Assembly: GCA_046351295.1 (NCBI GenBank)
Contig: JAXLYT010000035.1
Coordinates: forward strand, 77,452 to 114,297
DNA: 36,846 nt
Direction of reading: 5' to 3'
Source: Byssovorax sp.
GTDB lineage: Bacteria; Myxococcota_A; Polyangia; Polyangiales; Polyangiaceae
The position numbers and the translations under genes are program-made. Shown one piece after another: positions 4,476-36,846 of the stretch (position 1 is the stretch's first letter; every line of letters starts with the position of its first letter). The notes under the pieces are model-generated. The model was not told the DNA's origin and did not search any database. It worked only from the letters and a program-made list of their open reading frames with translations.

Positions 4476-4771
4476 GACGCTGCTCCGGACCCTCGAGGCC
4501 GGACAGGCACCCTCCGTGGCTCGGCGGGCGTCCGCGCGGCACTCCCCGAACGTGTGCAGCGGGCGTGCCACGCGTCGATCGGCGTCGAATGCAGGGCTCG
4601 ACGCGCATGCGCCCGCAGACCGTGCAGCGCGATGCAAGCCGAGCGCAAGCGATCCCGACGCATGCACGGACGCTCGAACGGGCGGCGCATACGGCTCGGG
4701 AGCGCGCGGCCCGACGGCGTTCTCTTCGTGCAAAACCGCACCGCCTGCGCCATCCTCGCGAGCACCGATCG
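4476..4771. promoter_or_regulatory. divergent intergenic region between the Ser/Thr kinase operon and the hydrolase gene, with GCATGC-centred palindromes
   Basis: Perfect 10-bp palindrome GCGCATGCGC at about 4608-4617, plus two further CGCATGCA and GATGCAAGC elements within 80 bp. No coding signal in either direction. Confidence 0.3.
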
Positions 4772-6139: not shown

Positions 6140-7358
6140 GCCACACGAGCTGATCGAGGGTGATGACGGGCTTGCCGCTCGTCATCAGGCACACCGAGAT
6201 CTGCCGCTCCGGGTCGGCCCAGCAGAGGATGCTCGTGAAGCCGAGGTGCCCGAAGGCCCGCGTGGACTCGTGGCCGTAGAAGCTCACCCACTTGCTGCCG
6301 AGCATGAAGCCCATCCCGTAGCGCACGGGCAGGCCCAGGGCCGAGTCGACCTGGAGGTGGCTCTGCTCGGCCACCGCGCGCTGCACCGTGCGCCGGTCGA
6401 AGATGCGCACCCCGTCGAGCTCGCCGTTCTCGAGGAGGATCTGGAAGAAGCGGGTGACCTCGCGGGCCGTCGTGATGATGTTGCCGGAGGCGATCACCGC
6501 GGTGAGGAAGCGCGGATCGTTCGACATCGAGACCGCGTTGCGCATGTCCACGCCGAAGGCCCGCTCGAGCACCCAGGAGTAGGGCGGCAGCGTGGGAGGG
6601 CCGGTGAAGGCGGCCTGCGCGACCAGATCGACCTCGTCCGGCGCGACCCCGTAGTTGAAATGGGAGAAGCCGAGCGGAGCTTCGATTTCGCTCTTCAAGA
6701 AGGAGCGGACATCGCGCCCGACGATCCGATCCACCACGGCGCCGAGGATGTAGCCGCCCGTGAGCGCGTGATACGCGATCTCCCGGCCGGGGATGGATAC
6801 GGGCTTGGTGTCGCAGAGCAGCTCGACCACCTTCCAGGGGTCGGACAGGAGATCGAGGTTGATGTGATCGCGCGGGACGTTGGGGATGCCGGCGCGGTGG
6901 GTGAGCAGGTGGCGGATGGTCATCCACTCCTTGCCCTTGCGCCCGAACTCCGGAAGGTACTCGGCCACGGGGTCGTCGAGGTGGAGCTGGCCGCGCTGAT
7001 CGAGCAGGTGGATCAGCATCGCCGTGACGGCCTTGGAGGCCGAGTAGATGTTGTAGAGGGTGCGCGGCGTGGCGAGCACCTTGGGCACGTCGGGCCCGTC
7101 GCCGGGTGCGTTGCCGCGGGCGTGGCCGATGGATCGATCGAGGACGACCTGGCCGCGGCGCCGGACGCAGAGCCCGATCGCCGGGTGGAGGCCCGTCGCG
7201 TAGAGCGCCCGCACCGACTCCCACATGCCCTCGATGGCCGCCCGATCGAGGTCCACGTCGCGCGGGTAGACCTCGGGATCGCGCGTCTCGACCTCCTCCG
7301 CGGGGTAGACGCGCACCTTGGAGGAGAGCGGAGGCAGCGCCGGCAGCGAGAGCTTCAT
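6096..7358 (-). CDS. serine hydrolase, class C beta-lactamase/esterase (EstB-like) family
   Basis: SxxK motif IYSASKAVTAM near the N-terminus; ~420 aa, consistent with the PBP/beta-lactamase transpeptidase fold; its ATG overlaps the upstream TGA (ATGA at 7355-7358). Confidence 0.75.
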   Translation of the reverse strand: MKLSLPALPPLSSKVRVYPAEEVETRDPEVYPRDVDLDRAAIEGMWESVRALYATGLHPAIGLCVRRRGQVVLDRSIGHARGNAPGDGPDVPKVLATPRTLYNIYSASKAVTAMLIHLLDQRGQLHLDDPVAEYLPEFGRKGKEWMTIRHLLTHRAGIPNVPRDHINLDLLSDPWKVVELLCDTKPVSIPGREIAYHALTGGYILGAVVDRIVGRDVRSFLKSEIEAPLGFSHFNYGVAPDEVDLVAQAAFTGPPTLPPYSWVLERAFGVDMRNAVSMSNDPRFLTAVIASGNIITTAREVTRFFQILLENGELDGVRIFDRRTVQRAVAEQSHLQVDSALGLPVRYGMGFMLGSKWVSFYGHESTRAFGHLGFTSILCWADPERQISVCLMTSGKPVITLDQLVWLNVPRTIARLCPRG

Positions 7359-10081: not shown

Positions 10082-10122
10082 TTGCGCGCGAGCGTACACC
10101 CGAACGGGCGAGGGCGGAGCGC

Positions 10123-18851: not shown

Positions 18852-21800
18852 CGCGGCCGGGGGAGATACCCTCGGCCGCCATGGACATCGACCTCGACCT
18901 CCTCGAAGCCCTGGCGCTCTCCGACGATCGCGCGCCCGCCCTCGAAGCGCTGCTCCCGGGCACCGCGGTCCACGACTATCGCCGCGGGATCGAGCTCCAG
19001 CACCAGGGGAAGCTCGACGAGGTCGACGCGCTGATCGAGGGGTGGAAGGCGCGCTATCCGAACGAGGACGAGGCCTTCGCGCGCCTCAGGCGCCGGCAGC
19101 TCCTCCTCCGGGCGGGCGCCGATCTCGCGACGCATGCGGAGGCGATCCGCTTCGAGGCGGGCCTCCGCTTCGATGATCAGGCCGAGGCCGAGGCGGCGGC
19201 GCAGCGGTACCCGAGCCGCCTCGATCCGGCGGTGATCTCGCCGGACGCGCTCCGGCGCGACGCGCTGAGCCGCGCCTCGGATCTCTCCTGCTTCACCGCG
19301 TGGTCGCTCGACACGCTGGTGTCGAAGGGCGGCGCGCTCGGGATGAGCCGGATCCGCGAGCTGCTCGGCCGGCTCCCGCGGGCGAACGTGAAGGGGCTCG
19401 TCGAGCTCATCGCCCGGGAGCTCGCGGACAGCGCGTCGGGGGGCTTCCGCGCCCTCGCCCTCGCGCCGCAGCTCACCCTGGAGCAGCTCCAGGCGCTCGT
19501 GAAGCAGCGGCCGCAGCTCCGCCAGGACGGCGCGTGGGTCGAGGCGGTGATGGCCCGGCTCTGCCCGCCTGCGCATGTCGACATCACGATCGATCGCGAG
19601 GCGCGCGGGGCGTACCTCGACGCGCTCGCGGCCTTCGTCGATCCGCTCCCGGCCGGCTTCGCCACGCTCAAGGCCCAGGTGCTCTACCACCGGCTCGATC
19701 TCGATCGCGCGCTCGGCGTCTACGATCGCGACCGCTTCCTCCGCTACCTCGGGATGCCTCGCGCGCAGCCCTACGTCGACGGCGACTGGATCCGCCGCTT
19801 GCCCTCCGATCAGGTGGCCCGGCCCGGCTGGGGCGGACCGTCGGCGCCGCTGCTCGAGTCGTTCGGGAACGACGAGGAGCTGGTGCGCGACTACCTGCAC
19901 CACTTCCTCGTCACGGAGGAGATGGACGCCTTCGCCGAGCGCATCCGCCGCGACTGGCTCACCGCGGAGCTCGCCACCGCGCGCCTGCTCGCGGGCGACC
20001 CCGACACCCGGCGCTGGACGGCGCTGCTCTCCGAGGGCGCGCTCGCGAGCCTCCGCGAGCGCGTGGACATCGAGCTCTCGTGCCGGAACCCGCCCTGCTT
20101 CGCAGCGGACGAGGCCGTGCGCCTGGAGGTGCTCTGCAAGAACGTTCCCGAGCTGACGGTCAAGGTCTTCCGGATCAACGCCCTCGCGTACTTCCTCGGC
20201 AAAGGTGGCGAGATCGACACGGACATCGATCTCGACGGGATGATCGCGGGCGACGAGCGCACCGTGACGATCGATGCGCCCTCGATCCGGCGCACCGCGC
20301 AGAGCGTCGATCTGCCCGGCTGCGCGCGGCCGGGCACGTACGTGGTCGAGCTGATCGGCAACGGCCGGGCGAGCCGCGCGCTGATCCGCAAAGGATCGCT
20401 CCGCGCCGTCTCGCGCGTCGGCGCGGCCGGGGTCACGGTGACCGTGCTCGACGAGCAGGGGCGGCCGCTCCCCGACGCGCGCCTGTGGATGGGCGGGCAG
20501 GAGCTGTCCCCGCGCGAGGACGGCGCGATCACCATCCCCTTCTCCACGCAGCCGGGCGAGCGGCCCGTGCTCCTCGTCCACGGCGATCTCGCCCAGCGCG
20601 AGACCCTCTATGTGCCGGCGGAGCGCTACGCGCTCGACGCTCGCTTCGAGCTCGATCGGCAGGCCCTCGTGGCGGGCAAGAACGCTCGGATCCTCCTTCG
20701 CCCGAGGCTCTCGATCGCCCCCTCGTCGCCCGTGCCGATCGCCCTGCTCGAGGAGCCCGCGCTCGAGATCTCCGTGGTCGATCTCAAGGGCGTCCCCGTC
20801 CAGAAGACCCTGCCCCTCACGCTCCGCGAGGACGCCGAGGCCGTCGCGGAGATCTGGGTGCCCGAGGACACGGTGAAGATCGGCCTCCGCCTGCGGGGTC
20901 GGGTGCGCGTCGTCTCGACCCAGCAGACCGTGGACCTCGAGGACACGATGGACACCGGCGTCAACGAGGTGCACCAGTCGTCGCAGACCGAGGCCATGCA
21001 CCTCGGCCGCACCGCGGACGGCCATGTCCTCTACCTGCTCGGCAAGTCGGGGGAGCCCCGCGCGGGCCGCGCGGTGCCGATCACGCTCACGCATGCCGCC
21101 GTGACCTTCGGCGTGGCCGTGACCCTGGCCACCGACGAGCGCGGCCGGATCGAGCTCGGCCCGCTGCCCGGGGTGAGGACGATCTCCGCGGGCGGATCGA
21201 GCTGGTCCATCTGGCCCGAGGTGAGCGCGCCGGATCTGCTCGGCGCGGCGAGCGGCGCGACGATCACGCTGCCGGCGCCGCCGTTCCTCGATCCCGAGGA
21301 GCTCCCGCGTGCCGTCTCCCTGGTCGAGTTGCGCAAGGACGCGGCGCTCCGCGAGCTCGGCGATCGGGTGACGCTCGACGGACGTCTGCTTCGGGTCGCC
21401 GGGCTCGATCCCGGCCGGTATCGCCTGAGCGTCCGGGGCTTCGACTCGCCGATCACCATCGAGATCGGGCCAGGCGCGGTCGATCCCGCGACCGGCTGGT
21501 CGACGCGCGGATCGAGGATGGTCGAGATCACCCCGCCCCTCGCGCTCGTGCAGGCCTTCGCCGTCGAGGGCGACGACATCGTGGTGCGCCTCGACGGCGC
21601 CGGCCCCGAGACCCGCGTCCACCTGATCGCGAGCTACTTCCAGCCTTCCCCGCTGCCCTTCGACCGCTTCGCCGAGACTCCGTCGACGACGCGCCCGGTG
21701 CAGGTGCCCCCGCGCCGATCCCGCTACGTCTCGGGGCGCGACATCGGCGACGAGTACCGCTACGTGCTCGCCCGGCGGACGGCGACGCGCCGGCCGGGGA

Positions 21801-24800
21801 TGCTGCTCGACAAGCCGAGCCTCCTGCTCAACCCGTGGGCGCTCCGCACCACGTCGAACCAGGTGCAGGTCGCCGCGTCGGGCAGCGCGTTCGGACCGGC
21901 CGGCGCGCCTCCCGGCATGGCCATGCCCAAGCCCCAGGGGCCGCGGGGAGGCAGCGCCGATCCCTCGCAGGGCGGGATCACCCCGTCGTACGATTTCCTC
22001 GCGGCGCCCGCCGTCGTGATCGACAACCTCCGCCCCGACGGCGGCGGCGTGGTTCGTGTACCGCGGACACGACTGGGCGACGCCCAGACCGTCCGGGCGA
22101 TCGTCGTCGATCGCAGGCAAGCGTCGAGCGCCGACCTGCCCTCCCCGAGACCGCGCCGGCCCACCGCGATCGCCGCCTCCGCCTCGCCCTCGATCCCGAC
22201 GGCCATTTCGCCGAGATCCGCTGCGTCGAGGCTGCCCCGAGCGGCACCGTGCTGGTCGTCGACGATCTGCGCACCGGCAAGGTCGAGCTCGTCGACACCG
22301 TGGCGCGGGCCCACCAGGTGCTGCTCACCCTGGGCGACGACGCGACCCTCCGCGAGCTCTCCTCGCTCGTGCGCTGGCCTTCGCTGCCGGCGGCAGAGCA
22401 GCAGCGCCTCTACGGCAAGTACGCATGCCACGAGCTCCACCTCTTCCTCGCCCGGAAGGACCCGGCCTTCTTCGCGCGCGCCGTCGCGCCCTACCTCGCC
22501 CACAAGCTGCACAAGACCTTCGTCGACCGCTACCTGCTCGGCGAAGATCTCTCCGCCTTCACCGAGCGCTGGGCCATGGGCCGCCTCAACGCGCTGGAGA
22601 AGGTCCTGCTCGCGCGCAGGCACCCCGAGCTCCGGCCGTCGATCGCGCGCCTCCTCGGCGAGGCCGTCGAGCGGATCCCGCCCGACCCCGAGCGCGACGC
22701 GCGTCTCTGCGACACCCTGCTCGGATCCACGGGGCTCGAGGGCGGTGGCATCGGCGGCGCGGCCAAGATGGACATGATGCTCGAGATGGGAGAGCCCGAA
22801 GAGGAGAGGGCAACACGGGAGCTCGATTTCGGACGTCGTGCCAAGCGCAAGGCGCGTCCGGCCGAGTCCGAGTCCGAGGCGGACGGCGACTTCAGCGACG
22901 ACATGCCCGCGCCCGCGCCCGCCGCGGCGCCGCCACCGGCGATGCGATCCATGACCATGGTGGGCTACGGCGGCGGCGGCATGGCGCGCGCGATGGCCGA
23001 TCTGCGGGAGCGAGAGCGCGGCGCCGCGCTCTACCGGAGCGCCGACAAGACGCAGGAGTGGGCCGAGTCCGGCTACTTCCGGACGCCCGTCGAGCTGCTC
23101 TCCCCCGATCTGGTCATACCGAGCCGCTTCCTCCTCGATCTCGCCAGGCACGAGGAAGGCCCCTTCCTCTCGCCGCACCTCGGCGACTGCGCCGACAGCT
23201 TCACCACGGCCATGGCCGCCCTGGCCTTCCTCGATCTGCCGTTCACGGCCGCCGAGCACGAGGTGCTGATCGACGACACGAAGCTCACCCTCACCGTCAA
23301 GAGCCACGCCCTCGCCGCCCGGACGCGGATCGCCTCCGTCTCCGCGCCCGAGGCGCGCGGGCCGATCCTGGTCGGGCAGAGCTACGTGCGCGCCGACGAT
23401 CCCGTCGTCTGGGAGGGCGCCGAGCAGCACGAGAAATACGTCACCGGCGAGATGCTCACGGGCGTGGTCTACGAAGCGCGGATCTCGGTGACCAACCCGA
23501 CGAGCAGCGCGCAGCGGCTCGCGGTCCTGCTCCAGATCCCGCGGGGCGCCGTCCCGGTTCAGAGCGGCTTCCTCACCCACACGAACCACGTCCACCTCGG
23601 CCCGTACGCGACCGCGGCGATCAGCTACGCCTTCTATTTCCCGGCGGAGGGCGCGTGGGGCCACTTCCCCGCCCATGTCCTTCGCGGTGAGGACCTCGCA
23701 GCGTTCGCGGAGCCGCGCAGGCTCACCGTGGTCCGCGAGCCCACGACCACCGACACGACCTCGTGGGCCCATGTCTCGCAGCTCGGGACGCTCGATGAGG
23801 TGCTGGGCTTCCTCGACCGCGAGAACCTCGGCCGGATCGATCTCGACAAGATCGCCTTCCGGATGCGCGATCGCGCGTCGTTCGAGCGCGTCATCGATCT
23901 GCTCGATCGCCGCCAGGTCTACGAGGACAAGCTCTGGTCCTACGCGCTCTTCCACGCCGATCGCCGCCGGGCCGCCGAGTGGCTCCGCCACCAGGGCGGC
24001 TTCCTCGCGCCCGCCGCGCCGGTGCTCGACGGCGCGCTCGTGACCGTGAGCCCCGTCGAGCGCGGGCTCTACCAGCACCTCGAGTACGCGCCCCTCGTCA
24101 ACGCCCGCGCCCACCAGCTCGGCAAGAAGCGGCGGATCCTCAACGACGCGCTCGCCGCGCAGTACCGCGCCTTCCTGGAGACCGTCGCGCACCGCGCTCG
24201 GCCGTCCGACGCCGATCTGCTCGTCGCCGCGCACTACGCCTTCTGCCTCGATCGCGTCGATTTCGCCCTCTCGTTGCTCGATCGGGTGCGCGCGGACGCC
24301 GTGGAGAGCCGCCTCCAGCTCGACTACCTCGCGGCCTACGCGGCCTGCTGCCGGGGCGATCTCGCCGAGGCCCGCAGGCGGATCGCGCCGTGGATCGACA
24401 GCCCCGTCGATCGCGTCCGCTTCCGGGCCGCGGCGCTCGCGGCCATGCTCGACGAGGCCGAGGGCAAGGGCGGCGGAGAGCGCCCCGCGGGCAGCGTCGA
24501 TCCCGACAGCCGCGATCGCGCCATGGCCGATCTCGCGAGCCGCCAGCCGACGCTCGATCTCGCGAGCGACAAGGGCGAGATCGTCCTCCGGCACAAGAAC
24601 CTCACCTCGGCCCGCGTGCGCTTCTACCGGATGGACATCGAGCTCTTGTTCTCGCGGCAGCCCTTCGTGCAGGGCGACGTCGAGCGCTTCTCGTTCATCG
24701 ATCCCGGGGGCGAGCTCACCATCCCGCTCGGCCCCTCCGGCCGCGCGGTGGTGCCCGTCCCGGACGCGCTGCGCGGTCAAAACCTGATCGTCATGGCCGA

Positions 24801-25116
24801 CGGCGCGGGCGTGCGGCGATCGATCGCCCACTACGCCCACGATCTCGCGATCGAGCTCGCGCATCAGGCCGGGCAGCTCCGGGTGCTCCGCGCCTCGACG
24901 CAGGCGGCGCTCCCGGCTGCCTACGTCAAGGTCTACGCCCGGCAGACCGGCGGCGCCGTGAGCTTCTACAAGGATGGCTACACCGACCTCCGGGGCCGCT
25001 TCGACTACGCCACCCTCTCGACCGACGACCTCGATCGCACCGAGCGATTCTCCCTGCTCGTCGTCTCGCCCGAGGCCGGCGCGACGGTGATGGAGGCGCC
25101 TCCGCCGGCCCGGTGA
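18848..25116 (+). CDS. very large (~2,090 aa) multidomain protein of unknown function embedded in the PKS operon; apparent 1-nt frameshift at about 22143-22147
   Basis: ATG at 18848 overlaps the TGA of gene 1 (ATGA); alternative ATG at 18881 (MDIDLDL) has GGGGGAGA upstream. Protein-like translation runs in frame 2 from 18848 to about 22145 (TPR-like helical N-terminus, then beta-rich repeats TVKVFRINALAYF, GTYVVELIG, VTVTVLDEQGRPLPDARLWMGGQE). It then continues in frame 1 from about 22150 to 25116 (helical region, then C-terminal beta domain YVKVYARQTGGAVSFYKDGYTDLRGRFDYATLSTDD). Restoring one C in the CCCC run at 22143-22146 joins ...ADLPSP to ETAPAHRDRRLRLALDPDG. No signal peptide, no nucleotide-binding or PKS motif was recognised. 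Confidence 0.7.
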
Positions 25117-25200: not shown

Positions 25201-28200
25201 ATGGCTGAGCGGGACAAGCGCGGCGTCGCGATCGTCGGCATGGCAGCGCTCTTCCCGGGCGCGCGCGATCTCGCGGCCTTCGAGCAGAACCTCGCGGCCG
25301 GCGCAGACGCCTTCCGCGACGCGCCGCCCGACCGGATCGATCCGGCCTTCTACGATCCCGCATCCACTGCGCCCGATCGGCTCTACTGCCGCCGCGGCGG
25401 CTTCCTCCCCGAGCCGGTGCGCTTCGACGCGGCCTCGTTCGGGATCATGCCGATCGCCGCGCAGGGCGCCGAGCCCGATCAGCTCCTCGCCCTCGATCTC
25501 GCGGCCCGCGCGCTCGCCGACGCCGGCTACGCCGATCGCCCCTTCGCGCGCGACAAAGCCTCGGTGATCCTCGGTCGCGGCGGCTACCTCACGCCCGGCG
25601 TGGCCCGCCTCGATCAGCGCGTCCGCGCCGCCGAGCAGCTCGTCCAGAGCCTCCGCGCGCTCTTGCCCGATCTGCCCGATGACAAGCTCGCCGCCGTCCG
25701 GGCCGAGGTGCAAGCCGGGCTCGGACCCTTCGGCCCCGACACCGCCATCGGCCTCGTGCCGAACCTCGCGGCCTCGCGCATCGCCAACCGCCTCGATCTC
25801 GGCGGCAGCGCCTACACGATCGACGCCGCATGCGCGAGCTCGCTCGTCGCGGTCGATCACGCATGCCGCGATCTCCACGCCCACCGGGCCGACCTCGTGC
25901 TCGCGGGCGGCGTCCATCTCTGCCACGATCCGGGCTTCTGGAGCGTCTTCTGCCAGCTCGGCGCGCTCAGCCGATCCGGGCAGATCCGCCCCTTCGATCG
26001 GCGCGCCGACGGCCTGCTCATCGGCGAGGGCGTGGGCGTCCTCGCGCTCAAGCGCCTCGCCGACGCCGAGCGCGACGGCGACCGCATCTACGCCGTGATC
26101 CGCGGCACGGGGACGGCGAGCGACGGCCGCGGCGCGAGCCTGATGAGCCCGGACATGAACGGGCAGATCGCCGCGCTCCGGCGGGCGTGGGACGACGCGG
26201 GGCTCGATCCTTCCCTCGTCGGTATGATCGAGGCCCATGGCACCGGCACGGCGGCGGGCGACGGGGCCGAGCTCGGCACGCTCGCGCGCGTCTTCGGCCC
26301 GGCGAGGGCAGACGAGGCGCGCGCCGCGCTCGGCTCCGTCAAGTCGATGATCGGCCACACCATGCCGGCCGCGGGCGCCGCCGGCTTGATCAAGGCCGCC
26401 CTCGCCCTCCACCACGCGCGGCTCTACCCCTCGCTCCACTGCGAGGAGCCCCGCGCCGAGGTCGAGGCCACGCGCTTCCGCATCCTCTCGCGCGCCGAGC
26501 CCTGGGAGAGCCCGGGCCGCCCGCGCGTCGCCGGCGTCAACGCCTTCGGCTTCGGCGGCATCAACGCGCATGTGGTGCTCGAGGAGCACCCGGCGAGCCG
26601 CCCGTCCACTTCGCCGCGCGCTTCGTCCCCATCGTCCACGTCGTCCACATCGTCGCCCACCGTGGTCGAGCCGGTCCTCTTCCTCGCCGCGGAGAGCCCC
26701 GCCGCGCTGTGCGAGGCCCTCGACGCGCATGACGCGCACAACGCGCATGACGAGCGCGCGGCGAGCGGACCTGCGCGCCTCGCGCTCTTCAACCCCACCC
26801 CGGAGCGGCGCGCGCGGGCCCGGGCCATCGTCGCGCGTGGCGAGCCCTGGCGCGGCCGCGACGATCTCTGGTTCTCCGCCGAGGGCCTGCTCGCGCGCGG
26901 CGGCCGGGTGGCCTTCCTCTTCCCGGGCGTCGATTCGAGCTTCGATCCGCGCGTCGACGACGTGGCCTCCCGCTTCGGGCTCCCGCTCAGCATGCCCGAG
27001 GGTAAGCGCTCGCTGAAGGATCTCGGGATGGGGATCATCGCGGTCGGCCGGCTGCTCGACGCCGCGCTCCGGCGGATCGGCGTCTACCCGGCGATGATCG
27101 CCGGCCACAGCATCGGCGAGTGGAGCGGGATGATCGCCTCGGAGATGATCCCCCGGGACGAGATCGACGGCATCATCGCGCGCCTCGCGCCCGAGAGCGT
27201 GTCCGTGCCCGGGGTCACCTTCATCGCGGCCGGCTGCGGCCTCGACAAGGCCATCGCCGCGATGGAGGGCCTGCCGGAGATCGCCGTCTCCCACGACAAC
27301 TGCCCGCACCAGCTCATCCTCTGCGGCATCGAGGCGAGCGCCGACATCGCCCTCGATCGACTGAAGAAGATGGGCGTGCTCAGCCAGAAGCTCCCCTTCC
27401 AGTCCGGCTACCACTCGCGCCTCTTCCACGCGTACACGGGCCCGCACCGGCGCATCCTCGCGGGCCTCCCGCTGACCACCCCGGCCGTGCCCCTCTGGTC
27501 GGCCACCACCTGCGCGCCCTACCCGGCCGATCCCGAGGCGATCCGCCGCCTCGCCGTGCAACACATCCTCGAGCCCGTCCGCTTCCGCGAGCTCACCCTC
27601 GCGCTCCACGAGGCCGGCGCGCGCGCGTTCATCCAGGTCGGCACCGGCAGCTTGATCGGCTTCGTCGGCGACACGCTGCGCGGCCTCCCGCACCTCGCCG
27701 TCAGCGCCAACATGCCGGCGCGCTCCGGCCTCGCCCAGCTCCGCCGCGTGGCTGCGGCGCTCTGGACCGAGGGCGCTTCACCCGACCTCGGCAGGCTCGA
27801 CATGGCGCCGCCCGCGCGCCGTGAAAAGGTACGCGCGGCCCCGCCCATCGAGATCTCGCTCGGCGCGCCCCTCGTCACCGCCCGCGGTCCGCTCGATCGC
27901 CCGGCGCCTCCCGCGCCGGCCGGTGATCTCGACGGCATAGCCGATCTCGCCTACCTCGATCTCGATCCCACCGATCCGCTCGCCGTCGAGCTCGGCCTGG
28001 GCCTCGCGTCGATCCGTGCCGCCCAGCGCGACGTCGTGGCGGCGTTCCTCCGCGCGCCGATCGCCCCACCCGCGGCAGGCCCGCACGAGATCACGCTCCA
28101 GCGCAGCATCTCGGTGGACGACTACCCCGAGCTGCACGATCACGCCTTCTACCGCCAGCCGGAGGGCTGGCCTGCGCTCGTCGATCGCTACCCCGTGGTG

Positions 28201-29301
28201 CCGATGACGATGATCCTCGAGCTCATGCGCGAGATCGCCGAGGAGCTCGTGCCGGGCAAGATCGCCGTCGGTCTCTCGGGCGTGCGCGCGTACCGCTGGA
28301 TGGCCGTCGCGCCCCCGGTCGATCTCACCATCACCGCTCGCCACGACGGCGCCTGCCGCGTCGAGCTGAGCATCGAGGGCTTCGCGGCCGGCGCGGTCGA
28401 GCTCGCCGACGCCTACCCCGCTCCGCCGCCGCGCGATCTCTCCCCGCTCACCGGCGAGGCCGCGCCCGCCATCGACGCCCCCACGCTCTACGCCGATCGC
28501 TGGATGTTCCACGGCCCCGCGTACCAGGGTGTGCTCTCCCTGGACACGATGGCCAACGATGGGATCCGCGGTCGCCTCGCGTCCCTCCGGGCGAAGGGCG
28601 GCCTGCTCGACAACGCGGGCCAGCTCCTCGGCTACTGGGTGATGGAGCATGCCGAGAACGACCGCCTCGCGATGCCGGTCATGCTCGAGCGCGTGCGCTT
28701 CTTCTCCCCCGCCCCGCCCGTCGGTGAGGACCTCGACTGCACCGTGTGGATCCGCCGCCTGAGCGACACCGACGTCCGGGCCGACGTGGAGCTGTGCGAA
28801 GGCGATCGGGTCTTTTGCCGGATCGACGGCTGGGAAGATCGCCGCTTCGACTCCGATGCCCGGGTGTGGGCCGTGCTCCGCTACCCCGAGCAGAACCTCC
28901 TCGCCGTGGTCGACGAGCAGGGCCGAGGCCTCGTCAAGCAGCCCTGGAAAACGGCCGCGTCACGCGATCTCCTCGCACGCCGCTACCTGAGCGAGCGAGA
29001 GCGCGAGGCACACGCCAAGATCGATCTCCGCCGGCAAGGCGAGTGGCTGCTCGGCCGGATGGCCCTCAAGGACTGCGCGCGGCGCCTGCTCTGGGAGCGC
29101 GGTCACGGGCCGATCTTCCCCATCGAGATCGAGGTCGAGACCGATCCGGCCGGCCTGCCGAGGCTCCGCGGTCCGCTCGCGGATCGGCTCGTCGCGCGCC
29201 TGGCCGTGAGGCCGGGGTACGCCGCGGCCTGGGTGGGCGATGCCGATCGAGAGGTCGATCTCGCGGCGCTCCTCGACCAGGCCGAGCCCCGCGGCGAATG
29301 A
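25201..29301 (+). CDS. type I PKS: KS, atypical AT, DH and a C-terminal AcpS-like PPTase-like domain
   Basis: 1,366-aa ORF with GAGGAG SD 7 nt upstream. KS: DAACASS (Cys codon 25831-25833), EAHGTGTAAGD, IGHTMPAAG. AT-like: AFLFPGVDSSF plus GHSIGEWSGM (Ser 27109-27111). DH: LHDHAFYRQPEGWP ... LYADRWMFHGPAYQGV. Tail: YLSEREREAHAKIDLRRQGEWLLGRMALKDCARRLL and IEIEVETDPAGLPRLRG, resembling the AcpS motifs (RFAAKEAxxKA; FEVFNDELGKPRLRLWG). Confidence 0.9.
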   Translation: MAERDKRGVAIVGMAALFPGARDLAAFEQNLAAGADAFRDAPPDRIDPAFYDPASTAPDRLYCRRGGFLPEPVRFDAASFGIMPIAAQGAEPDQLLALDLAARALADAGYADRPFARDKASVILGRGGYLTPGVARLDQRVRAAEQLVQSLRALLPDLPDDKLAAVRAEVQAGLGPFGPDTAIGLVPNLAASRIANRLDLGGSAYTIDAACASSLVAVDHACRDLHAHRADLVLAGGVHLCHDPGFWSVFCQLGALSRSGQIRPFDRRADGLLIGEGVGVLALKRLADAERDGDRIYAVIRGTGTASDGRGASLMSPDMNGQIAALRRAWDDAGLDPSLVGMIEAHGTGTAAGDGAELGTLARVFGPARADEARAALGSVKSMIGHTMPAAGAAGLIKAALALHHARLYPSLHCEEPRAEVEATRFRILSRAEPWESPGRPRVAGVNAFGFGGINAHVVLEEHPASRPSTSPRASSPSSTSSTSSPTVVEPVLFLAAESPAALCEALDAHDAHNAHDERAASGPARLALFNPTPERRARARAIVARGEPWRGRDDLWFSAEGLLARGGRVAFLFPGVDSSFDPRVDDVASRFGLPLSMPEGKRSLKDLGMGIIAVGRLLDAALRRIGVYPAMIAGHSIGEWSGMIASEMIPRDEIDGIIARLAPESVSVPGVTFIAAGCGLDKAIAAMEGLPEIAVSHDNCPHQLILCGIEASADIALDRLKKMGVLSQKLPFQSGYHSRLFHAYTGPHRRILAGLPLTTPAVPLWSATTCAPYPADPEAIRRLAVQHILEPVRFRELTLALHEAGARAFIQVGTGSLIGFVGDTLRGLPHLAVSANMPARSGLAQLRRVAAALWTEGASPDLGRLDMAPPARREKVRAAPPIEISLGAPLVTARGPLDRPAPPAPAGDLDGIADLAYLDLDPTDPLAVELGLGLASIRAAQRDVVAAFLRAPIAPPAAGPHEITLQRSISVDDYPELHDHAFYRQPEGWPALVDRYPVVPMTMILELMREIAEELVPGKIAVGLSGVRAYRWMAVAPPVDLTITARHDGACRVELSIEGFAAGAVELADAYPAPPPRDLSPLTGEAAPAIDAPTLYADRWMFHGPAYQGVLSLDTMANDGIRGRLASLRAKGGLLDNAGQLLGYWVMEHAENDRLAMPVMLERVRFFSPAPPVGEDLDCTVWIRRLSDTDVRADVELCEGDRVFCRIDGWEDRRFDSDARVWAVLRYPEQNLLAVVDEQGRGLVKQPWKTAASRDLLARRYLSEREREAHAKIDLRRQGEWLLGRMALKDCARRLLWERGHGPIFPIEIEVETDPAGLPRLRGPLADRLVARLAVRPGYAAAWVGDADREVDLAALLDQAEPRGE
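25219..26590 (+). other. ketosynthase domain (KS2) with intact C-H-H triad, so not a CLF
   Basis: VAIVGMAALFPGA...IDAACASSLVAVDHA...HGTGTAAGD...GHTMPAAG...GFGGINAHVVL. Confidence 0.85.
26900..27790 (+). other. acyltransferase-like domain with non-canonical GVDSS motif
   Basis: VAFLFPGVDSSFDP replaces the usual GQGSQ; GHSIGEWSGM nucleophile elbow retained; a downstream HAYTGPHRR-like His region is present. Confidence 0.6.
28070..28850 (+). other. PKS-type dehydratase (double hot-dog) domain
   Basis: LHDHAFYRQPEGWPALVDRYPVVP (HxxxGxxxxP-like) and LYADRWMFHGPAYQGV (GPxFQG motif). Confidence 0.7.
28870..29298 (+). other. AcpS-type phosphopantetheinyl-transferase-like C-terminal domain
   Basis: About 145-aa tail after DH: LSEREREAHAK...RMALKDCARRLL (a match to the W/F-x-x-K-E-A-x-x-K motif with E replaced by D) and IEVETDPAGLPRLRG ... 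AAAWVGDADREV, resembling AcpS C-terminal motifs. The N-terminal Mg-binding motif looks degenerate (VVDEQG). Confidence 0.45.
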
Positions 29302-29368: not shown

Positions 29369-29665
29369 GTGACCGTCCAGCCCGAAGATCACCTGCGCGA
29401 GCAAGTCCTCTCGACCGTCACGGTGATGATCCGGCAGGTGATCGACGACGAGGCGGGCCTCGGGGCGCCCATCGCCCTCGCGACCTCGTTCAACGCCGAT
29501 CTCGAGCTGGAGAGCATCGAGTTCGTGGCTCTCGCCGAGAAGCTCCAGGCCCACTACGGCGGCGCGGTCGACTTCACCGGCTGGCTCTCGGGCAAGGAGC
29601 TCGACGAGATCATCGCGCTCACGGTGGGCGACCTGGTGGAGCACATCGTCCGGTGCCTCTCGTAG
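29369..29665 (+). CDS. discrete acyl carrier protein
   Basis: 98 aa; GTG start preceded by GGCGAGG; acidic helical protein with FNADLELESIEFVALAEKLQ (Ser-containing helix-II region); its 3' end overlaps the next gene by 13 nt. Confidence 0.65.
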   Translation: MTVQPEDHLREQVLSTVTVMIRQVIDDEAGLGAPIALATSFNADLELESIEFVALAEKLQAHYGGAVDFTGWLSGKELDEIIALTVGDLVEHIVRCLS

Positions 29666-30411
29666 ACAAGCGCGGCGTCCGGTTCCACACCCAGGTCCTC
29701 GGCGAGGGCGCGCCCCCGCTCGTGATGCTCCACGGGCTCCTCATCGGCAACCTCGCCTCGTTCTACTTCACCGCCGCGCCCGCCCTCGCCGAGCGCCGCA
29801 AGGTGCTGCTCTACGATCTCCGCGGACACGGCAAGAGCCAGCGTGTTCCATCGGGCTACGATGTCTCCACCATGGCGGGCGACCTCGAGGCGCTCTCCGA
29901 AGATCTCGGCGAAGGCCCGATCGATCTCTGCGGCCACAGCTACGGCGGCCTCATCGCCCTCCGCTTCGCCCTCGATCACCCCGGCCGCGTGCGCCGCCTC
30001 GCCCTCGTCGAGACCCCGCTCCCGCCCTCGAAATTCGGCGATTTCGAGTCGTTCTTCGCCCAGGGCCCGGCCGAGATGGTCGCCGGTCTCCCCGAGAGCC
30101 TGCAAACCGTCCTCGGCCACGGCGGCCGCCGCGCTGCCCGCCTCCTCGACGCCCTCCGCTTCCTCACCCAGGAGAGCTCCCTGCTCGCCGATCTGCGCGC
30201 CGAGCCCGACATCCCCGACGAGGTGCTCGCCACGCTCGGCTGCCCGGTCCTCTGCGTCTACGGCACCACCTCGCTCTGCGCGCCCATGGGCGAGCGGATC
30301 GCCCGCGCCATCCCCGGGGCGCGCCTCGTGATGCTGCCCGGCGGCCACTACCTCCACCTCGACGCGACCGAGCCGCTCACCCGCGCGCTCCAGGGCTTCT
30401 TCGATGGCTGA
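29653..30411 (+). CDS. alpha/beta-fold hydrolase (putative thioesterase or acyl hydrolase), paralog 1
   Basis: 252 aa; HGLLIGN oxyanion region; GHSYGG nucleophile elbow (Ser codon 29938-29940); C-terminal GGHYLHLD with the catalytic His; overlaps the next start (ATGGCTGA). Confidence 0.75.
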   Translation: MPLVDKRGVRFHTQVLGEGAPPLVMLHGLLIGNLASFYFTAAPALAERRKVLLYDLRGHGKSQRVPSGYDVSTMAGDLEALSEDLGEGPIDLCGHSYGGLIALRFALDHPGRVRRLALVETPLPPSKFGDFESFFAQGPAEMVAGLPESLQTVLGHGGRRAARLLDALRFLTQESSLLADLRAEPDIPDEVLATLGCPVLCVYGTTSLCAPMGERIARAIPGARLVMLPGGHYLHLDATEPLTRALQGFFDG

Positions 30412-31204
30412 CATCACGGCCCGCGGCCTCCGTTTCCATGTCCAGCGCCTCGGCGCGCCGCAGGAGGGCGCGCCTGTCGTCGTGTTCCTGCACGGCCTCG
30501 TGATGGACAACCTGTCGAGCTTCTACTTCACGCTCGCCAACCCCGCGGCGCAGCTCGGCGAGGTCGTGCTCTACGATCTCCGCGGCCACGGCAAGAGCGC
30601 GCGCCCCGCCGCGGGCTACGGCCTCGACGAGATGGTGGCCGATCTCGACGCGCTCCTGCGCGCGCTCTCCTCACCGCGCCCGTGGTGCTCGCCGGCAACA
30701 GCTTCGGCGGCCTGCTCGGCCTGGCCTTCGCGGCCGCCCACCCCGATCGCGTCGCCGGCCTCCTGCTCATCGACGCCCACCTCGGCGAGCAGGGCTGGGC
30801 AGACAATACGGCCGCGACCCTCAAGCTCGAAGGCGAGGCCCGCGATCGCATGATCCAGGCATCGTTCGAGCACTGGCTCGGCCGCCACAGCGAGAAGAAA
30901 TCGACCCGCCTCGCGCAGACGGCCTCGGCCCTCGTGTACGGCACCTCGCTCGTCGACGAGATGGCGCATTCTCCCTCGCTCGGCGAGGACGCGCTCCGCC
31001 GCGTCACCTGCCCCGTGCTTGCCCTCTACGGCGAATCGAGCGATCTGCGCGCCTCGGCCGAGGCCCTCGGCCGCGCCCTGCCCGCCGTCGATCTGCGCGT
31101 CTACCCCGGCTGCTCGCACTCGATCCTCTGGGGAGGCCACCGCGAAGGTGCGCGAGGACATGCTGGCCTTCCTCCGTTCGTTGCAGCTCAAACCATCTCC
31201 CTGA
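30404..31204 (+). CDS. alpha/beta-fold hydrolase, paralog 2, interrupted by two compensating frameshifts
   Basis: N-terminus in frame 2 (MADITARGLRFHVQRLG...LYDLRGHGKS), collinear with paralog 1. The middle part (30665-31131) is readable only in frame 1 (VVLAGNSFGGLLGLAFAAAHPDRVAGLLLID...PGCSHSILW). The C-terminus returns to frame 2 (EATAKVREDMLAFLRSLQLKPSP*). A 1-nt deletion in the tcctca run at about 30668-30673 and an extra G in the GGGG run at 31130-31133 explain this. Confidence 0.65.
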
Positions 31205-31207
31205 CCC

Positions 31208-32415
31208 ATGGCGCGCTTCCTCTTCGTCGTCCCGCCGCTCGCTGTCGGTCACACCAACCCCACGGTGAGCGTGGCGGCGGCCCTCCGCGCGCGCGGCCAC
31301 GAGGTCGCGTGGGTGGGGCACCCGGGCGTTGTCCGCCCGCTCTTGCCCGAAGGCGCGACGCTCTTCGCCCTCGACGACCAGCTCCCCGAGGAGCGCTGGA
31401 CGCAGGCCCAGGCGACCTCTCGCACCGCGCGCGGCCTCGCCGCGCTCAAGTTCCTCTGGGAAGAGTTCTTCATCCCCCTCGCCCGCGCCATGGTCCCCGG
31501 CGTCGAGGACGCGATCGATCGCTTCCACCCCGACGCGCTCGTCGTCGATCAGCAAGCCGTCGCCGGCGCGGTGGCGGAAGGCGCGGCCTGCCCTGGGCCA
31601 CCTTCGCCACCACCTCCGCGGGCCTCACCGATCCGCTCGCCGGCCTCCCGCTCGTGCGCGCGTGGCTCGACGCCCAGCTCGCCACGCTCGAACAAGAGGC
31701 CGGTCTCGCCCCCGTGCCCGAGCCCGATCGATCACCGATGCTCGTCGTCGCCTTCAGCACCGCCGAGCTCGCCGGCCCACCCGAGCGCTTCCCCTCGCAC
31801 TATCAGTTCGTCGGCCCCTCGATCCATGCGCGCCCGCAGACCACACCCTTCCCCTGGGAAGATCTCCGCCCCATTCCGCGCGTCCTCGTCTCCCTCGGCA
31901 CCGTCAACGCCGAGGCCGGTGAGCGCTTCTACGCGACCGTGATCGAGGCCCTCGGTGACGATGGATCCCATCGTGGTCCACGCCCCCAGGTCGTGCTCGT
32001 CGCGCCCGACGCCCTGGTGAAACAAACCGCGCCCAACATCATCCGCCGCCCCTTCGTCCCCCAGCTCGCGCTCCTGCCCGAGATGAGCGCCGTCGTGTGC
32101 CACGGCGGGCAAAACACCGTCTGTGAGGCCCTCGCGCATGGCCTGCCGCTCGTCGTCCTCCCCATCAAGGACGATCAACCGGTCATCGCGCAGCAGGTCG
32201 TCGACGCAGGCGCCGGCATCCGCCTCAAGTTCGGGCGTGTCCGCGCCGACGAGCTCCGCGAGGCCGTGCGCCGCGTCCTCGAAGAGCCGTCCTTCCGCGA
32301 AGCCGCTCGGCGCATCCAGCGCTCCTTCACCGCAGCCGGCGGCGCCCCGCGCGCGGCCGAGCTCATCGAAGGCCTGATCGGACAAGCTCCTCCCACCGTG
32401 CCCGCCGCGACGTAG
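31208..32415 (+). CDS. GT1-family glycosyltransferase (MGT/UDP-glycosyltransferase-like), with an apparent 1-nt frameshift at about 31577-31581
   Basis: N-terminus in frame 2 (MARFLFVVPPLAVGHTNPTVSVAAALRARGHEV); C-terminal two thirds in frame 1 with VCHGGQNTVCEALAHGLPLVVLPIKDDQPVIAQQVVDAGAG (GT1 donor-binding signature). Restoring one A in gaagg to gaaagg gives ...AVAAERRGLPWATF..., the typical AAERLGIPW region. Confidence 0.75.
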
Positions 32416-34280: not shown

Positions 34281-35516
34281 TCACGGCGGCGAGCCGGGCA
34301 TCACCGCGGTGATCTCCGCGTCGAAGCCGAGATCGCTGCTGGTCGCCGCGGCCTGGTGCACCTCGACCGCGAGCACGTTCGGCCCGTCGACGAAGAGCGC
34401 CGGATCGATCGCGAAGCCGAAGAAGGCCGTCTCCTCCGCGCCGCCCACCCCGACGGGCGCGAGGGTCGCCGCGTCGATGTCGCCGTCGGGCAAGTTGGTC
34501 CGGGCGATCTCGGTCCCGTTGAGGAATGCCCGCGCCCCGTCGTCCCGGAGGATCTTCAGCGTGGCCGACGTGAACGACGCGTGGTCCGCCGCGAGGAAGG
34601 TCGTGCGAAACCAGGTGGTGATGTGCTTGGCGTTCGGATCGGGGCCATAGGAGACGGTGGTGACGATGTGGGGATCGCCGTAGCCGAGAGGCGCGGGGCC
34701 GCTCGGGAGCGCGCTGTCGTCGAAGGCGGCCGTGGTCCAGCTCGGATCCGGCGGCTGGTCCTGATCGAGGTAATGAAACACGCTCCCCGTCTGGAGGAGC
34801 GAGACAGTCACCGGGGGCACGAAGACGTTCGTCTTGCCCGGCGTCCCGCGGAAGACGAACGTGAAGCAGCCGGGTCCCTGGCAGCAATCCGGGTTGCGCG
34901 CCGCGGAGAAATCGGCCGCGATCTCTCCGTAGGAGACGAGGCTGCCCCGTCCATCCGGCGCAAAGACGCCCACCACGCCGCCCTTGGCGTCGAGCTTGAA
35001 CCCGAGGTGCGACGCTCCAACCTGCGGTGTCCCGTCGGCCCAGAGGAGCAAGAAGCCTTTGGGTGGGAGGGTGAGCCCGGCGGGCAAGACGCTCTTGAAG
35101 GGCATCGACGCGTCGTCGGTGAGCGCCCACCCCGCGAGATCGATCGGTGTTTTGCCCGGATTGTGGAGCTCGATCCAGTCGGCGTAGTTTCCGCCCTCGT
35201 CCGCCGCGGAGGCGATGTTGCGCGGCATGAGCTCGTTGATGCAGAGCTCGAGCGGCAGCGGCGGAGCGTCGCCGCCGGCCCCGCCCATCCCACCGACTCC
35301 ACCGATCCCTCCGGTCGTCTGGGCGCTCCCGCCGGTGCCCTGCGTGGTCCCACCGTGTCCACCGGATCCCGCCGTATCCGCGCCGGATCCACCGGTGCCC
35401 GACGTGGTCGCGCTCGCACCGCCGGCGCCGGTGACGCCCGCGGGGTCGGGTGATCCACAGCTCTGGAGAGCGAAGAACACGAAAAGCGGCGGGACGAAGA
35501 CGAGAACGCGCTTCAT
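34281..35516 (-). CDS. lipoprotein with lamin-tail-domain (LTD)
   Basis: MKRVLVFVPPLFVFFALQSCG (signal plus lipobox-like); Gly/Thr/Ser linker; CINELMPRN...ADWIELHNPGKTPIDLAGWALTD matches the LTD signature (INE.M...DWIEL.N....L.GW.L); its ATG overlaps the TGA of the upstream CotH-like gene (ATGA at 35516-35518). Confidence 0.7.
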   Translation of the reverse strand: MKRVLVFVPPLFVFFALQSCGSPDPAGVTGAGGASATTSGTGGSGADTAGSGGHGGTTQGTGGSAQTTGGIGGVGGMGGAGGDAPPLPLELCINELMPRNIASAADEGGNYADWIELHNPGKTPIDLAGWALTDDASMPFKSVLPAGLTLPPKGFLLLWADGTPQVGASHLGFKLDAKGGVVGVFAPDGRGSLVSYGEIAADFSAARNPDCCQGPGCFTFVFRGTPGKTNVFVPPVTVSLLQTGSVFHYLDQDQPPDPSWTTAAFDDSALPSGPAPLGYGDPHIVTTVSYGPDPNAKHITTWFRTTFLAADHASFTSATLKILRDDGARAFLNGTEIARTNLPDGDIDAATLAPVGVGGAEETAFFGFAIDPALFVDGPNVLAVEVHQAAATSSDLGFDAEITAVMPGSPP

Positions 35517-36846
35517 CACAGCCCCCAGAACACGGTGAGGGCGGCGTTCTGGTTGGTGATGAAGCCCCGGAGGTAGTCGCGCCACGCGCCGACCTCCCCC
35601 GCGCCGCACTCCCGGCGTGGATCATCCTGGGTCTCGGCGAAGGTGAGCGCGTCGATCTGATCGAACCAGGCGAGCAGCGCCGCCGGATCGATCGCGTCGA
35701 TGAGCGCCTTGACGGCCACCTTGTGATCGGCCGCGCACTGCGGGTCGAGAAAGCAGCCATGGGCGAGCCGGCCGAGCGGGGACGCCCAGCTCATCCCCCA
35801 GTCGGAGTCGTGGAGGAATCCATAGTCGAAGTCCCACGGGACGATCTGGGCCTTGCCGTCCGCCGGGTTGAAGTAGACCCGGTAATTGTTCGTGTTGAGG
35901 GCGTAGCCGTCGTTGTGCCCGACCCATTGCTCGGCGGCGAGCTCGCGGTGGTATTCGGCCCAGTCGAGGAGCGGCGCGACGGTCGCGCCGAACTGCGCGG
36001 TCCCGTAGCTCGCGGAGACGGCGCTCGAGATCGCCTGGATGTCCGCGTGGCCCACGTCCATCCCCTCTTCGAGCTGGAACATGTCGTCGACGCCGTTCGC
36101 GAAGTCGAGGAGCTGGTAATTGTTCCCGCCGAACCACACGTACTTGCCGTCGTAGAGGTTGCCCTTGGGCTCCGGGTAGCTGCGCTTGAGCCAGCGCGAG
36201 TCCGGCGTCTCGACGATCACGTAGAGGCCGTAGTCCGCCCCGTTGACGCTCACCCTGGCGAAGCCCGTCCGCTCGGAGGGGACGCCCGCGAGCGCGAAGA
36301 CGCGGTACGCGAGCGGCTCCTTCAGGTACGAGCAGTCCACCACCTCGTTGTTGAGCGAGAGGGTGTCGAGCCCGTAGAAGCGCTGGTCCTTGACGATCTC
36401 CCCGAACTCGATCTTGAATTTCGGCTTGCCGGCGAGCGTGCGGAACGAGCCGATCTTTCCCCGCAGGCGAACTCCCACCTTGGGGACTTGCATTCCGTCG
36501 AAGACGAAGTCGCCTTGCGCGAACTCGAACGGCGAGGCGTCGAGGGCCGAGACCGACGCCGGAGGGAGGGTGATCTCCACCGTGTGAATGGTCTGGTCGG
36601 AGAAGATCCAGTCGTCGCTCGGCTGGAACCCTCCCGCGTCTTCCTCGGTGGGCGGCGGCCCGCCCGCGTCGAGGTCGCCGCCCGCGCCCGCGCTCGTCGC
36701 GGTGGTCGTCGTGCCGCCGGCTCCGCCGCCGCCCTGCGAGACGCCGGTGGTCCCGGAGGCGCCCCCGCCGCCGGTGGCCGTCGATGTCGTCGATGTCGTC
36801 GAGGTCGTCGATGTCGCCGACGTGACGGACGTGGCCGGCTGGTCTC
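35516..36846 (-). CDS. CotH-like protein; 5' end lies beyond the window
   Basis: The open frame continues upstream of the track's M at 36580 through a Thr/Ser/Gly-rich linker (...TSTTSTTSTATGGGGASGTT...) to the window edge. The body (YRVYFNPADGKAQIVPWDFDYGF, HNDGYALNTNNY) resembles CotH-family atypical kinases, which commonly pair with LTD proteins. Confidence 0.55.
   Translation of the reverse strand, partial: DQPATSVTSATSTTSTTSTTSTATGGGGASGTTGVSQGGGGAGGTTTTATSAGAGGDLDAGGPPPTEEDAGGFQPSDDWIFSDQTIHTVEITLPPASVSALDASPFEFAQGDFVFDGMQVPKVGVRLRGKIGSFRTLAGKPKFKIEFGEIVKDQRFYGLDTLSLNNEVVDCSYLKEPLAYRVFALAGVPSERTGFARVSVNGADYGLYVIVETPDSRWLKRSYPEPKGNLYDGKYVWFGGNNYQLLDFANGVDDMFQLEEGMDVGHADIQAISSAVSASYGTAQFGATVAPLLDWAEYHRELAAEQWVGHNDGYALNTNNYRVYFNPADGKAQIVPWDFDYGFLHDSDWGMSWASPLGRLAHGCFLDPQCAADHKVAVKALIDAIDPAALLAWFDQIDALTFAETQDDPRRECGAGEVGAWRDYLRGFITNQNAALTVFWGL

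Follow-up and report, generated by a model that had tools for sequence, protein, structure and literature searches.

Described systems and the present locus

This work concerns the C-terminal tail of synthase 2 (S2), the second of two multidomain synthases encoded in a 36,846-nucleotide stretch of DNA from Byssovorax sp. (GenBank assembly GCA_046351295.1, contig JAXLYT010000035.1, positions 77,452 to 114,297 of the forward strand), referred to here as the window. The tail has the fold of a 4'-phosphopantetheinyl transferase (PPTase), but it appears to be only one lobe of an ancestrally two-lobed enzyme, and we argue that it is an inactive remnant retained on the preceding dehydratase (DH) domain. 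The closest described systems are the Type M secondary lipid synthases, an uncharacterised class with a fused pfaDA gene and a pfaBC gene carrying a PPTase, known from Frankia, Renibacterium salmoninarum, Streptomyces avermitilis, and Actinosynnema (Shulse and Allen 2011, PMC3098273). An hShxH form of the P1b' motif was reported for Types M to T in the same survey (PMC3098273), and the arrangement of a fused pfaDA with a PPTase-containing pfaBC is mentioned again in PMC13291983.

The window shares its gene order with 80 related loci, including loci from Frankia and Streptomyces: synthase 1 (S1), with enoyl reductase (ER), ketosynthase (KS), acyltransferase (AT), acyl carrier protein (ACP), and ketoreductase (KR) domains; S2, with KS-AT-DH-PPTase; and then a discrete ACP, one or more hydrolases, a glycosyltransferase (GT), and a methyltransferase (MT). 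In this respect the cluster appears to match Type M, an assignment made by architecture and taxa and not by the KS phylogeny of the published survey. The family motif VSxAH agrees with the reported P1b' motif in intact members. The window departs from this pattern in that S2 is without the C-terminal lobe (C-lobe) and its P2 and P3 motifs, as well as the Ser and His of P1b', and in that a 6.3-kb insert parts S1 from S2. We found no description of a half-PPTase remnant in the literature, only mentions of the intact fused arrangement. The half-domain is the unusual feature of this locus. The presence of an in-cis PPTase, which a sequence-only reading of this DNA had considered atypical of Pfa-like systems, is in fact normal: DH-PPTase fusions are the norm in this family, as seen both in database homologues with PF14765 plus PF01648 and in the two articles cited above (PMC3098273 and PMC13291983).

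Four other PPTase systems serve as points of comparison. The first, raised by the sequence-only reading, is by architecture and not by sequence: like S2, an enediyne polyketide synthase (PKSE) places a PPTase after the DH at its C-terminus. PKSEs are iterative, type I proteins resembling polyunsaturated fatty acid synthases, with the domain order KS-AT-ACP-KR-DH-PPTase. A PKSE phosphopantetheinylates its own in-cis ACP, whereas S2 contains neither an ACP nor a KR and its PPTase is truncated. The group III PPT domain of the fungal fatty acid synthase (FAS) alpha-subunit is also integrated at a C-terminus, and the family C-lobe profile matches it weakly (E ~1e-3). The fungal domain is, however, a complete and active AcpS-like unit, and the family region that matches it is the lobe missing in the window. 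AcpS itself (group I; Protein Data Bank [PDB] entries 1F7L and 1F80) resembles the tail in size, fold (template modeling [TM] score of ~0.7), and aligned sequence motifs. AcpS is a free-standing homotrimer of ~120 aa that uses Asp8 and Glu58; the tail is instead fused at the DH to a synthase of ~1,200 aa, has no strand motif equivalent to that of Asp8, and is by descent probably a lobe of a two-lobed domain. Finally, Sfp of Bacillus subtilis (group II, W-KEA type; 1QR0 and 4MRT) is a two-lobed pseudo-dimer, as is the intact family domain, and a profile search of the PDB matches it with an E value of 8e-8. In both Sfp and AcpS, the equivalent of the C-lobe holds the catalytic Lys and the ligands of Mg2+, while the N-terminal lobe (N-lobe) provides contacts to coenzyme A (CoA).

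Fold of the synthase 2 tail

The tail comprises the last ~157 residues of S2 (~1210-1366) and begins with GWEDRRFD at position 28828. The features that define it are as follows.

25201-29301, + strand: S2 gene, 1366 aa; KS, KS_C, AT, and PS-DH by Pfam, followed by the tail, a probable orphan PPTase N-lobe
28828-28851, + strand: DH/PPTase junction GWEDRRFD (residues 1210-1217), invariant in relatives
28858-29250, + strand: PPTase-fold N-lobe, tail residues ~11-141 (protein residues ~1220-1350), located by AlphaFold2 (AF2), Foldseek, and hidden Markov model (HMM)

Standard domain models recognize this region poorly. The tail sequence alone gave no match to Pfam PF01648 (ACPS) at E<=1, and its score with NCBIfam TIGR00556 (PPTase domain) was E=0.035, or 14 bits against a cutoff of 45. 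When the tail was compared to the PDB with phmmer, the only matches below E=10 were four AcpS chains, with E values of 0.22-1.5. The conclusion that such Pfam and NCBIfam scores invite, namely, that the tail is not a PPTase, was overturned by a family profile and by structure. An N-lobe HMM built from intact relatives matches the window tail with an E value of 5.7e-45, and a family profile of 89 sequences in turn matches residues 22-114 of B. subtilis AcpS (E=2.3e-13). In this alignment, which includes LgerE..., the family segment GRiAvKDAVR pairs with GRFAAKEAFSKA and ievandasgrP pairs with IEIRKDQNGKP. Profile positions farther downstream match AcpS, Sfp, and the yeast FAS PPT domain.

Structure prediction gave the same answer. 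For the 157 residues of the tail, AF2 gave a model of high confidence (predicted local distance difference test score [pLDDT] of 93.1 and predicted TM score [pTM] of 0.89), and all of the 35 best Foldseek matches of this model in the PDB are structures of AcpS or Sfp (probability, 1.00; TM score normalised to the target, ~0.65-0.74). The best of these are AcpS structures (E ~1e-5 and TM ~0.7 on the target), with Sfp also retrieved. That the tail has a PPTase fold is hence confirmed. Structure and profile place it in the 4'-phosphopantetheinyl transferase superfamily, characterized by an alpha+beta fold in which a three-stranded sheet packs on a long helix, at the level of fold, although a direct match to PF01648 is lacking. 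The sequence-only reading had described an AcpS-size, PPTase-like domain behind the DH that aligns with AcpS motif by motif; the domain is borne out by AF2, Foldseek, and the family profile, and the same aligned segments were recovered by HMMER (phmmer and family profile). It had also proposed a PF01648 search and a fold prediction as a joint check, with failure of both to count against it; as described above, the search gave no match and the predicted fold is that of a PPTase, so that the two did not fail together.

Descent from a two-lobed domain

To place the tail in context, one genome per species was scanned, which returned the 80 related loci. These come from Myxococcota, Actinomycetota (Streptomyces, Amycolatopsis, Frankia, and Acidimicrobiia), Acidobacteriota, Chloroflexota, and others, and S2 orthologues occupy the same position in them. 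In most, the tail following GWxDRRFD is 225-290 aa long, and relatives' tails contain G(I/V)DxE at ~residue 142-148 and W.AKEA..K at ~180-190. One homologous fragment, P0002, reads on beyond the position of the window's stop codon (...GIDLEKV...RFWVAKEAVAK...VGWT), and we take its GIDLE and RFWVAKEAVAK to be Sfp-type P2 and P3 motifs. An HMM of intact tails aligns to Sfp (sequence checked against 1QR0) across both lobes, such that the family GRP corresponds to G74-K75-P76, S..H to N87..H90, GxDxE to D107/E109, and WxxKEAxxK to W147-E151-K155. Many database homologues carry PF14765 plus PF01648, a few of them also PF17837, and are named "4'-phosphopantetheinyl transferase superfamily protein." Because of the long tails with GxDxE and WxAKEAxxK, the two-lobe alignment to Sfp, and the presence of PF01648 in homologues, the family domain is assigned as an integrated, two-lobed Sfp-type (W/KEA) PPTase, with the DH-PPTase fusion as the norm.

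The window tail accounts for only the first half of this domain: it scores 153 bits with the N-lobe HMM and -0.8 bits with the C-lobe HMM. Two features mark the point at which the homology ends.

29251-29265, + strand: P2 vestige EVDLA at tail residue 142, the same offset as GVDLE/GIDLE of intact relatives (GVDLE in locus L001)
29299-29301, + strand: stop codon, where the catalytic C-lobe (~90-120 aa in relatives) would start

Compared to GxDxE, EVDLA has lost both the Gly and the Glu equivalent to Sfp E109. The stop follows 11 codons after EVDLA, and the discrete ACP gene starts 67 nt beyond it. When all six frames of the window were searched, no C-lobe was found with the C-lobe HMM, the P3 motif (W/F)xxKE(A/S)xxK was absent (as it is from the tail itself), and no other PPTase gene was found, in keeping with what the sequence-only reading had said of the latter. 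An apparent match of a second-half HMM to the ACP open reading frame (ORF) was rejected as the missing C-lobe, being due to relatives with an ACP fused behind the PPTase; the C-lobe HMM was rebuilt without the fused-ACP part. Intact and C-lobe-less members were sorted by HMM bit scores, and by this measure L051, L066, L076, L077, and L079 are intact, the regular expression for the motifs having been too strict.

The tail superposes on Sfp in Foldseek, but only as the equivalent of Sfp residues ~1-100; D107, E109, E151, and K155 have no counterpart, and a Val occupies the position of H90. Conversely, Sfp does not have the K-D-x-x-R helix motif that is invariant in the family N-lobe. An active Sfp-type enzyme has two tandem lobes of ~100-120 aa each, P2, P3, and the CoA-contact motifs of the N-lobe, none of which is found in the tail in that form. 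On the strength of the HMM alignments and the relatives, the tail is read as the N-terminal lobe alone of an Sfp-type PPTase domain and not, as the first comparison with AcpS implied, as a single-lobe domain of the trimeric AcpS type.

Residue pattern of the remaining lobe

We then compared positions with at least 80% conservation in intact relatives with the same columns in 14 C-lobe-less members (window included). Three segments of the N-lobe are of particular relevance.

29044-29091, + strand: long helix WLLGRMALKDCARRLL, with family-invariant K1290, D1291, and R1294; positional equivalent of AcpS GRFAAKEAFSKA (HMMER alignment to 1F7L)
29149-29160, + strand: P1a-type remnant AGLP (family xGRP; Sfp Y73-G74-K75-P76), with the basic residue replaced by Leu
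29197-29208, + strand: P1b' position, RLAV (family VSxAH; Sfp N87..H90; AcpS SITH), with Ser replaced by Arg and His by Val

The core of the lobe is retained. In tail numbering, E58, W73, K81, D82, R85, and P98, together with the GWxDRRFD junction, are unchanged in 14/14 C-lobe-less members, and R59, L74, and R77 are kept in the window and in no fewer than 12 of these members overall. With or without a C-lobe, relatives show 100% conservation of the Lys, Asp, and Arg of the helix. In contrast, the positions lost among C-lobe-less members are those of the CoA site: G109/P111, S124, and H127, which are 95-98% conserved in intact members. For P1b', the Ser is 95% and the His 98% conserved in intact relatives, while both are replaced in nearly all C-lobe-less relatives (one retains the Ser, another the His). 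The window follows this trend, with GRP changed to GLP and S..H to R..V.

These patterns bear on the motifs that had been called degenerate at the outset. At the N-terminus, the first strand of the tail reads RGLVK, and no AcpS-type GxD (Asp8) strand motif is present in the tail. The K-D of the helix is not an altered K-E: the N-lobes of all 80 relatives, intact ones included, have both residues without exception (100%), and the true catalytic K-E lies in the missing lobe. The invariant K-D is a family trait of the N-lobe and a sign of neither decay nor catalysis. Because the catalytic lobe is missing and the CoA-site residues are changed, we infer that the tail is unable to catalyse phosphopantetheinyl transfer and is almost certainly inactive.

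A working enzyme of the AcpS kind would be an alternative, with the N-lobes of two or three chains associating so that CoA and Mg2+ sites form at their interfaces and D1291 stands in for AcpS Glu58. The tail equals AcpS in size and fold, has D1291 and R1294/R1295 where AcpS has E58 and K62, and belongs to a family in which K-D-x-x-R is invariant; type I synthases are, moreover, oligomeric. Yet the strand RGLVK offers no equivalent of Asp8, the residues that contact CoA in AcpS and Sfp, namely, the S..H pair and the basic residue of GRP, have given way to others in the window, Pfam ACPS gives no match, and in every intact relative the N-lobe is the non-catalytic partner of a motif-bearing C-lobe. 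Together with the recruitment of complete PPTases described below, this makes an active AcpS-like tail highly improbable.

Recurrent loss of the C-lobe

Loss of the C-lobe with retention of the N-lobe is not confined to the window. It is seen in an Acidimicrobiia/Microthrixaceae clade (L017, L021, L024, L025, L031, L037, and L039), in Pseudonocardiaceae (L060, L062, and L068), in Frankia (L063-L065), and in the Polyangiaceae-like branch to which the window belongs, and from this distribution the loss appears to have been independent in Acidimicrobiia, Pseudonocardiaceae, Frankia, and Polyangiaceae. The nearest genome relatives of the window are uncultured Polyangiaceae/Byssovorax metagenome-assembled genomes (MAGs), with a tail identity of just 52-54%. 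Its closest relatives, P0001, P0003, and L002, have shrunken C-lobes without catalytic residues, and the metagenome fragment P0004 shows the same clean truncation, with an ACP gene that overlaps its stop. In an exhaustive HMMER search, which gave 468 cluster representatives at E<=1e-3, about 3 of the 63 long representatives end no more than 26 aa past the N-lobe and several more end within 40-60. Among these representatives, as among the 80 loci, a two-lobed domain of 225-290 aa is what usually occupies this position.

If loss of the C-lobe means loss of activity, a replacement PPTase would be expected, and one is present in six of the Acidimicrobiia loci that have lost the fused C-lobe (L017, L021, L024, L025, L037, and L039). 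Each has, between S1 and S2 (at ~4400-5300 in these loci), a paralogue of the fused PPTase that is complete and shows the WLLGRxAAKDAVR helix of the family plus GIDVE and WxxKEAAAK; in most it is a separate gene, while in L039 it is apparently joined to the end of S1. Such recruitment would be needless were the N-lobe active alone. In the DNA examined for the window, Pseudonocardiaceae, and Frankia loci, no stand-alone PPTase gene was found.

The survey also speaks to a split enzyme, in which the N-lobe would pair in trans with a C-lobe encoded elsewhere or with the C-lobe of another PPTase. Sfp-type enzymes are pseudo-dimers with the active site between the lobes, the N-lobe core is fully conserved, and the content of the window is compatible with a distant partner gene. 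A C-lobe-only ORF was, however, seen neither in the 80 loci, where the extra PPTases are complete two-lobed proteins, nor in the window, and the N-lobe residues that would contribute to a shared CoA site are just those that have been lost (Ser to Arg, His to Val, and Arg to Leu). We consider this the least probable of the alternatives.

Two further observations were made in these loci. Behind the stand-alone PPTase of Acidimicrobiia lies a conserved gene of ~330-450 aa (...AIKMIRNTLLNTYKLGY...). In L060, L062, and L068 (~6100-9300), no KS match was obtained for S2, and the AT almost directly follows the KR of S1, which suggests that the S2 of these Pseudonocardiaceae, with their truncated tails, is either fused or reduced still more, to AT-DH-N-lobe.

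Carrier proteins

In addition to S2, the following carrier-protein genes are present in the window.

11844-18851, + strand: S1; PfaD-like ER-KS-AT-ACP-KR by Pfam
29369-29665, + strand: discrete ACP gene, 98 aa, with LESIE serine motif; Pfam PP-binding

An in-cis ACP had been presumed for S2, but Pfam locates ACPs only in S1 (~residue 1734-1781, motif LSIDSIKRIEI) and in the discrete gene, orthologues of which directly follow the tail in nearly all loci. The serines of both ACPs are intact, so that a PPTase would have to act on them in trans. In two uncultured myxobacterial MAGs, L009 (10118-11131) and L016 (10115-11128), the ACP forms an in-frame fusion with the end of the PPTase (KS-AT-DH-PPT-ACP), as judged from tails of 338 aa, an ACP match in L009 (10853-11128) that lies inside the tail ORF (end, 11131), and the match of the second-half HMM to the ACP ORF noted above. 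This fusion hints that the discrete ACP is the cognate substrate of the PPTase domain.

Locus layout and integrity

The operon, on the + strand, was delimited by codon-position G+C analysis and Pfam scans; overall, the window has a G+C content of 72%. The S2 ORF was judged to be real, with a G+C content at third codon positions (GC3) of 0.92. Downstream of the ACP gene are two alpha/beta hydrolases, followed by the GT and the MT. Orthologues of hydrolase 2 (30341-31131) and of the GT (31150-32415) each match in two frames, with breaks at ~30680 and ~31575.

The ~6.3-kb stretch between S1 and S2 (18848-25116, + strand) encodes ~2,080 aa with coding-type GC3. S1 and S2 are close in all 80 related loci, mostly adjacent and 1-2 kb apart in a few, and the insert has no counterpart in any of them. 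Scans of it with Pfam, NCBIfam, and the family HMMs gave no match, and it was ruled out as a hidden PPTase for lack of any such signal. The first ORF of the insert has an ATG start that overlaps the stop of S1, and at ~21950-22200 the coding frame shifts from that of ORF 14666-22777 to that of ORF 19300-25116 without an evident start codon. The insert (U1/U2) is likeliest one giant gene carrying a frameshift, whether from sequencing error, pseudogenization, or recoding. The apparent frameshifts at ~22050, ~30680, and ~31575 could reflect either indel errors in the assembly or partial decay of the cluster.

Such defects raise the alternative that the truncation is itself an artefact (an assembly error or deletion) or that the cluster is dying and the tail is functionless, for which the three frameshifts, in the insert, hydrolase 2, and the GT, and the separation of the normally adjacent S1 and S2 by 6.3 kb could be cited. 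Against this, the 7 kb of S1 and the 4.1 kb of S2 run without interruption and have GC3 values of 0.92-0.94, and the lobe that remains retains every invariant residue. Some 100 codons have been removed cleanly, unlike in an indel, with normal spacing to the ACP preserved, and the same architecture recurs in independent contigs and taxa; a loss of this kind is explained neither by indel errors nor by partial decay. The nearest relatives (P0001, P0003, and L002), with their shrunken C-lobes, are also intermediate in form. We therefore regard an artefact or general decay as unlikely, though the frameshifts caution against taking this locus to be fully functional.

The flanking genes encode a 914-aa protein with Dictyostelium-type CTDC repeats (7355-10099, - strand), a Ser/Thr protein kinase (3114-4733, - strand), a CotH kinase (35516-36580), and a lamin-tail-domain protein (34281-35609), a content in keeping with a myxobacterial source.

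Role of the retained lobe

Conservation at the junction with the DH is as strict as that in the core of the lobe: the G, W, D, R, R, F, and D of GWxDRRFD are 100% conserved in all relatives, whether or not the C-lobe is present. An AF2 model of DH plus tail (442 aa) has a pLDDT of 92.5 and a pTM of 0.86, and the pLDDT of the junction is at least 94 in this model versus 68 when the tail is modelled alone, which indicates that DH and N-lobe are predicted to form a rigid unit. Invariance of junction and core argues for purifying selection, presumably for a non-catalytic role. Whether the domain is catalytic or only structural had been left undecided by the sequence-only reading; the evidence favours the structural option, with the missing C-lobe and the lost CoA-site residues speaking against the catalytic one.

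The best overall explanation, to which we assign a probability of roughly three in four, is that a pseudo-PPTase lobe has been kept as a rigid appendage of the DH while the ACPs are activated in trans. According to this scheme, the family ancestor would have been a PfaBC-like protein, KS-AT-DH, with a complete PPTase of two lobes at its C-terminus, and this PPTase presumably loaded the S1 ACP and the small downstream ACP. In the lineage of the window, the C-lobe would have been deleted, and with it would have gone the catalytic Lys as well as the Mg2+ ligands supplied by GxDxE and by the Glu of WxxKEAxxK. The CoA-contacting residues of the remaining lobe would then have drifted, leaving a remnant that is no longer a PPTase. 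What would have preserved the N-lobe is its rigid attachment, through GWxDRRFD, to the C-terminal end of the DH double hot-dog; in that position it may help to stabilize or shape the DH end of S2 and could also offer a surface for docking. Both ACPs would be activated by a PPTase encoded outside the window.

Several points weigh against this explanation. The trans-acting PPTase that it invokes is not seen within the 36.8 kb of the window. The proposed DH/N-lobe interface is a prediction resting solely on model confidence scores. Invariant residues speak against neutral drift but not to what is being selected, and retention of the N-lobe could stem in part from the difficulty of a clean deletion and not from a positive function. 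Invariance of K81, D82, and R85 extends to the stand-alone paralogue of Acidimicrobiia, so that these are not simply DH-contact residues. Lastly, if the three frameshifts mean that the whole cluster is decaying, to call the lobe retained for function may overstate the case for this locus.

A more specific role can be proposed tentatively, with the odds against it: the N-lobe could be a true pseudoenzyme domain under selection, extending the DH rigidly and acting as a docking platform for the small downstream ACP (the one fused behind the PPTase in L009 and L016), the trans-acting PPTase, or both, with the K-D-x-x-R helix as the binding surface. If true, the family could drop its catalytic lobe repeatedly but never its N-lobe.

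Implications for the family

For annotation and genome mining, the tail should not be taken as evidence that the cluster is self-sufficient in carrier-protein activation. A PPTase would have to be co-expressed if this cluster, or its C-lobe-less relatives from Frankia, Pseudonocardiaceae, and Acidimicrobiia, were expressed in a heterologous host. The product of the widespread ER-KS-AT-ACP-KR / KS-AT-DH-PPT / ACP / hydrolase / GT / MT cluster is apparently uncharacterised in the literature. The family offers a natural series from an intact domain, through a shrunken C-lobe, to an N-lobe only. With the catalytic half of a pseudo-dimeric enzyme apparently lost several times and the non-catalytic half still constrained, it would provide a clean case for the origin of pseudoenzymes within megasynthases.

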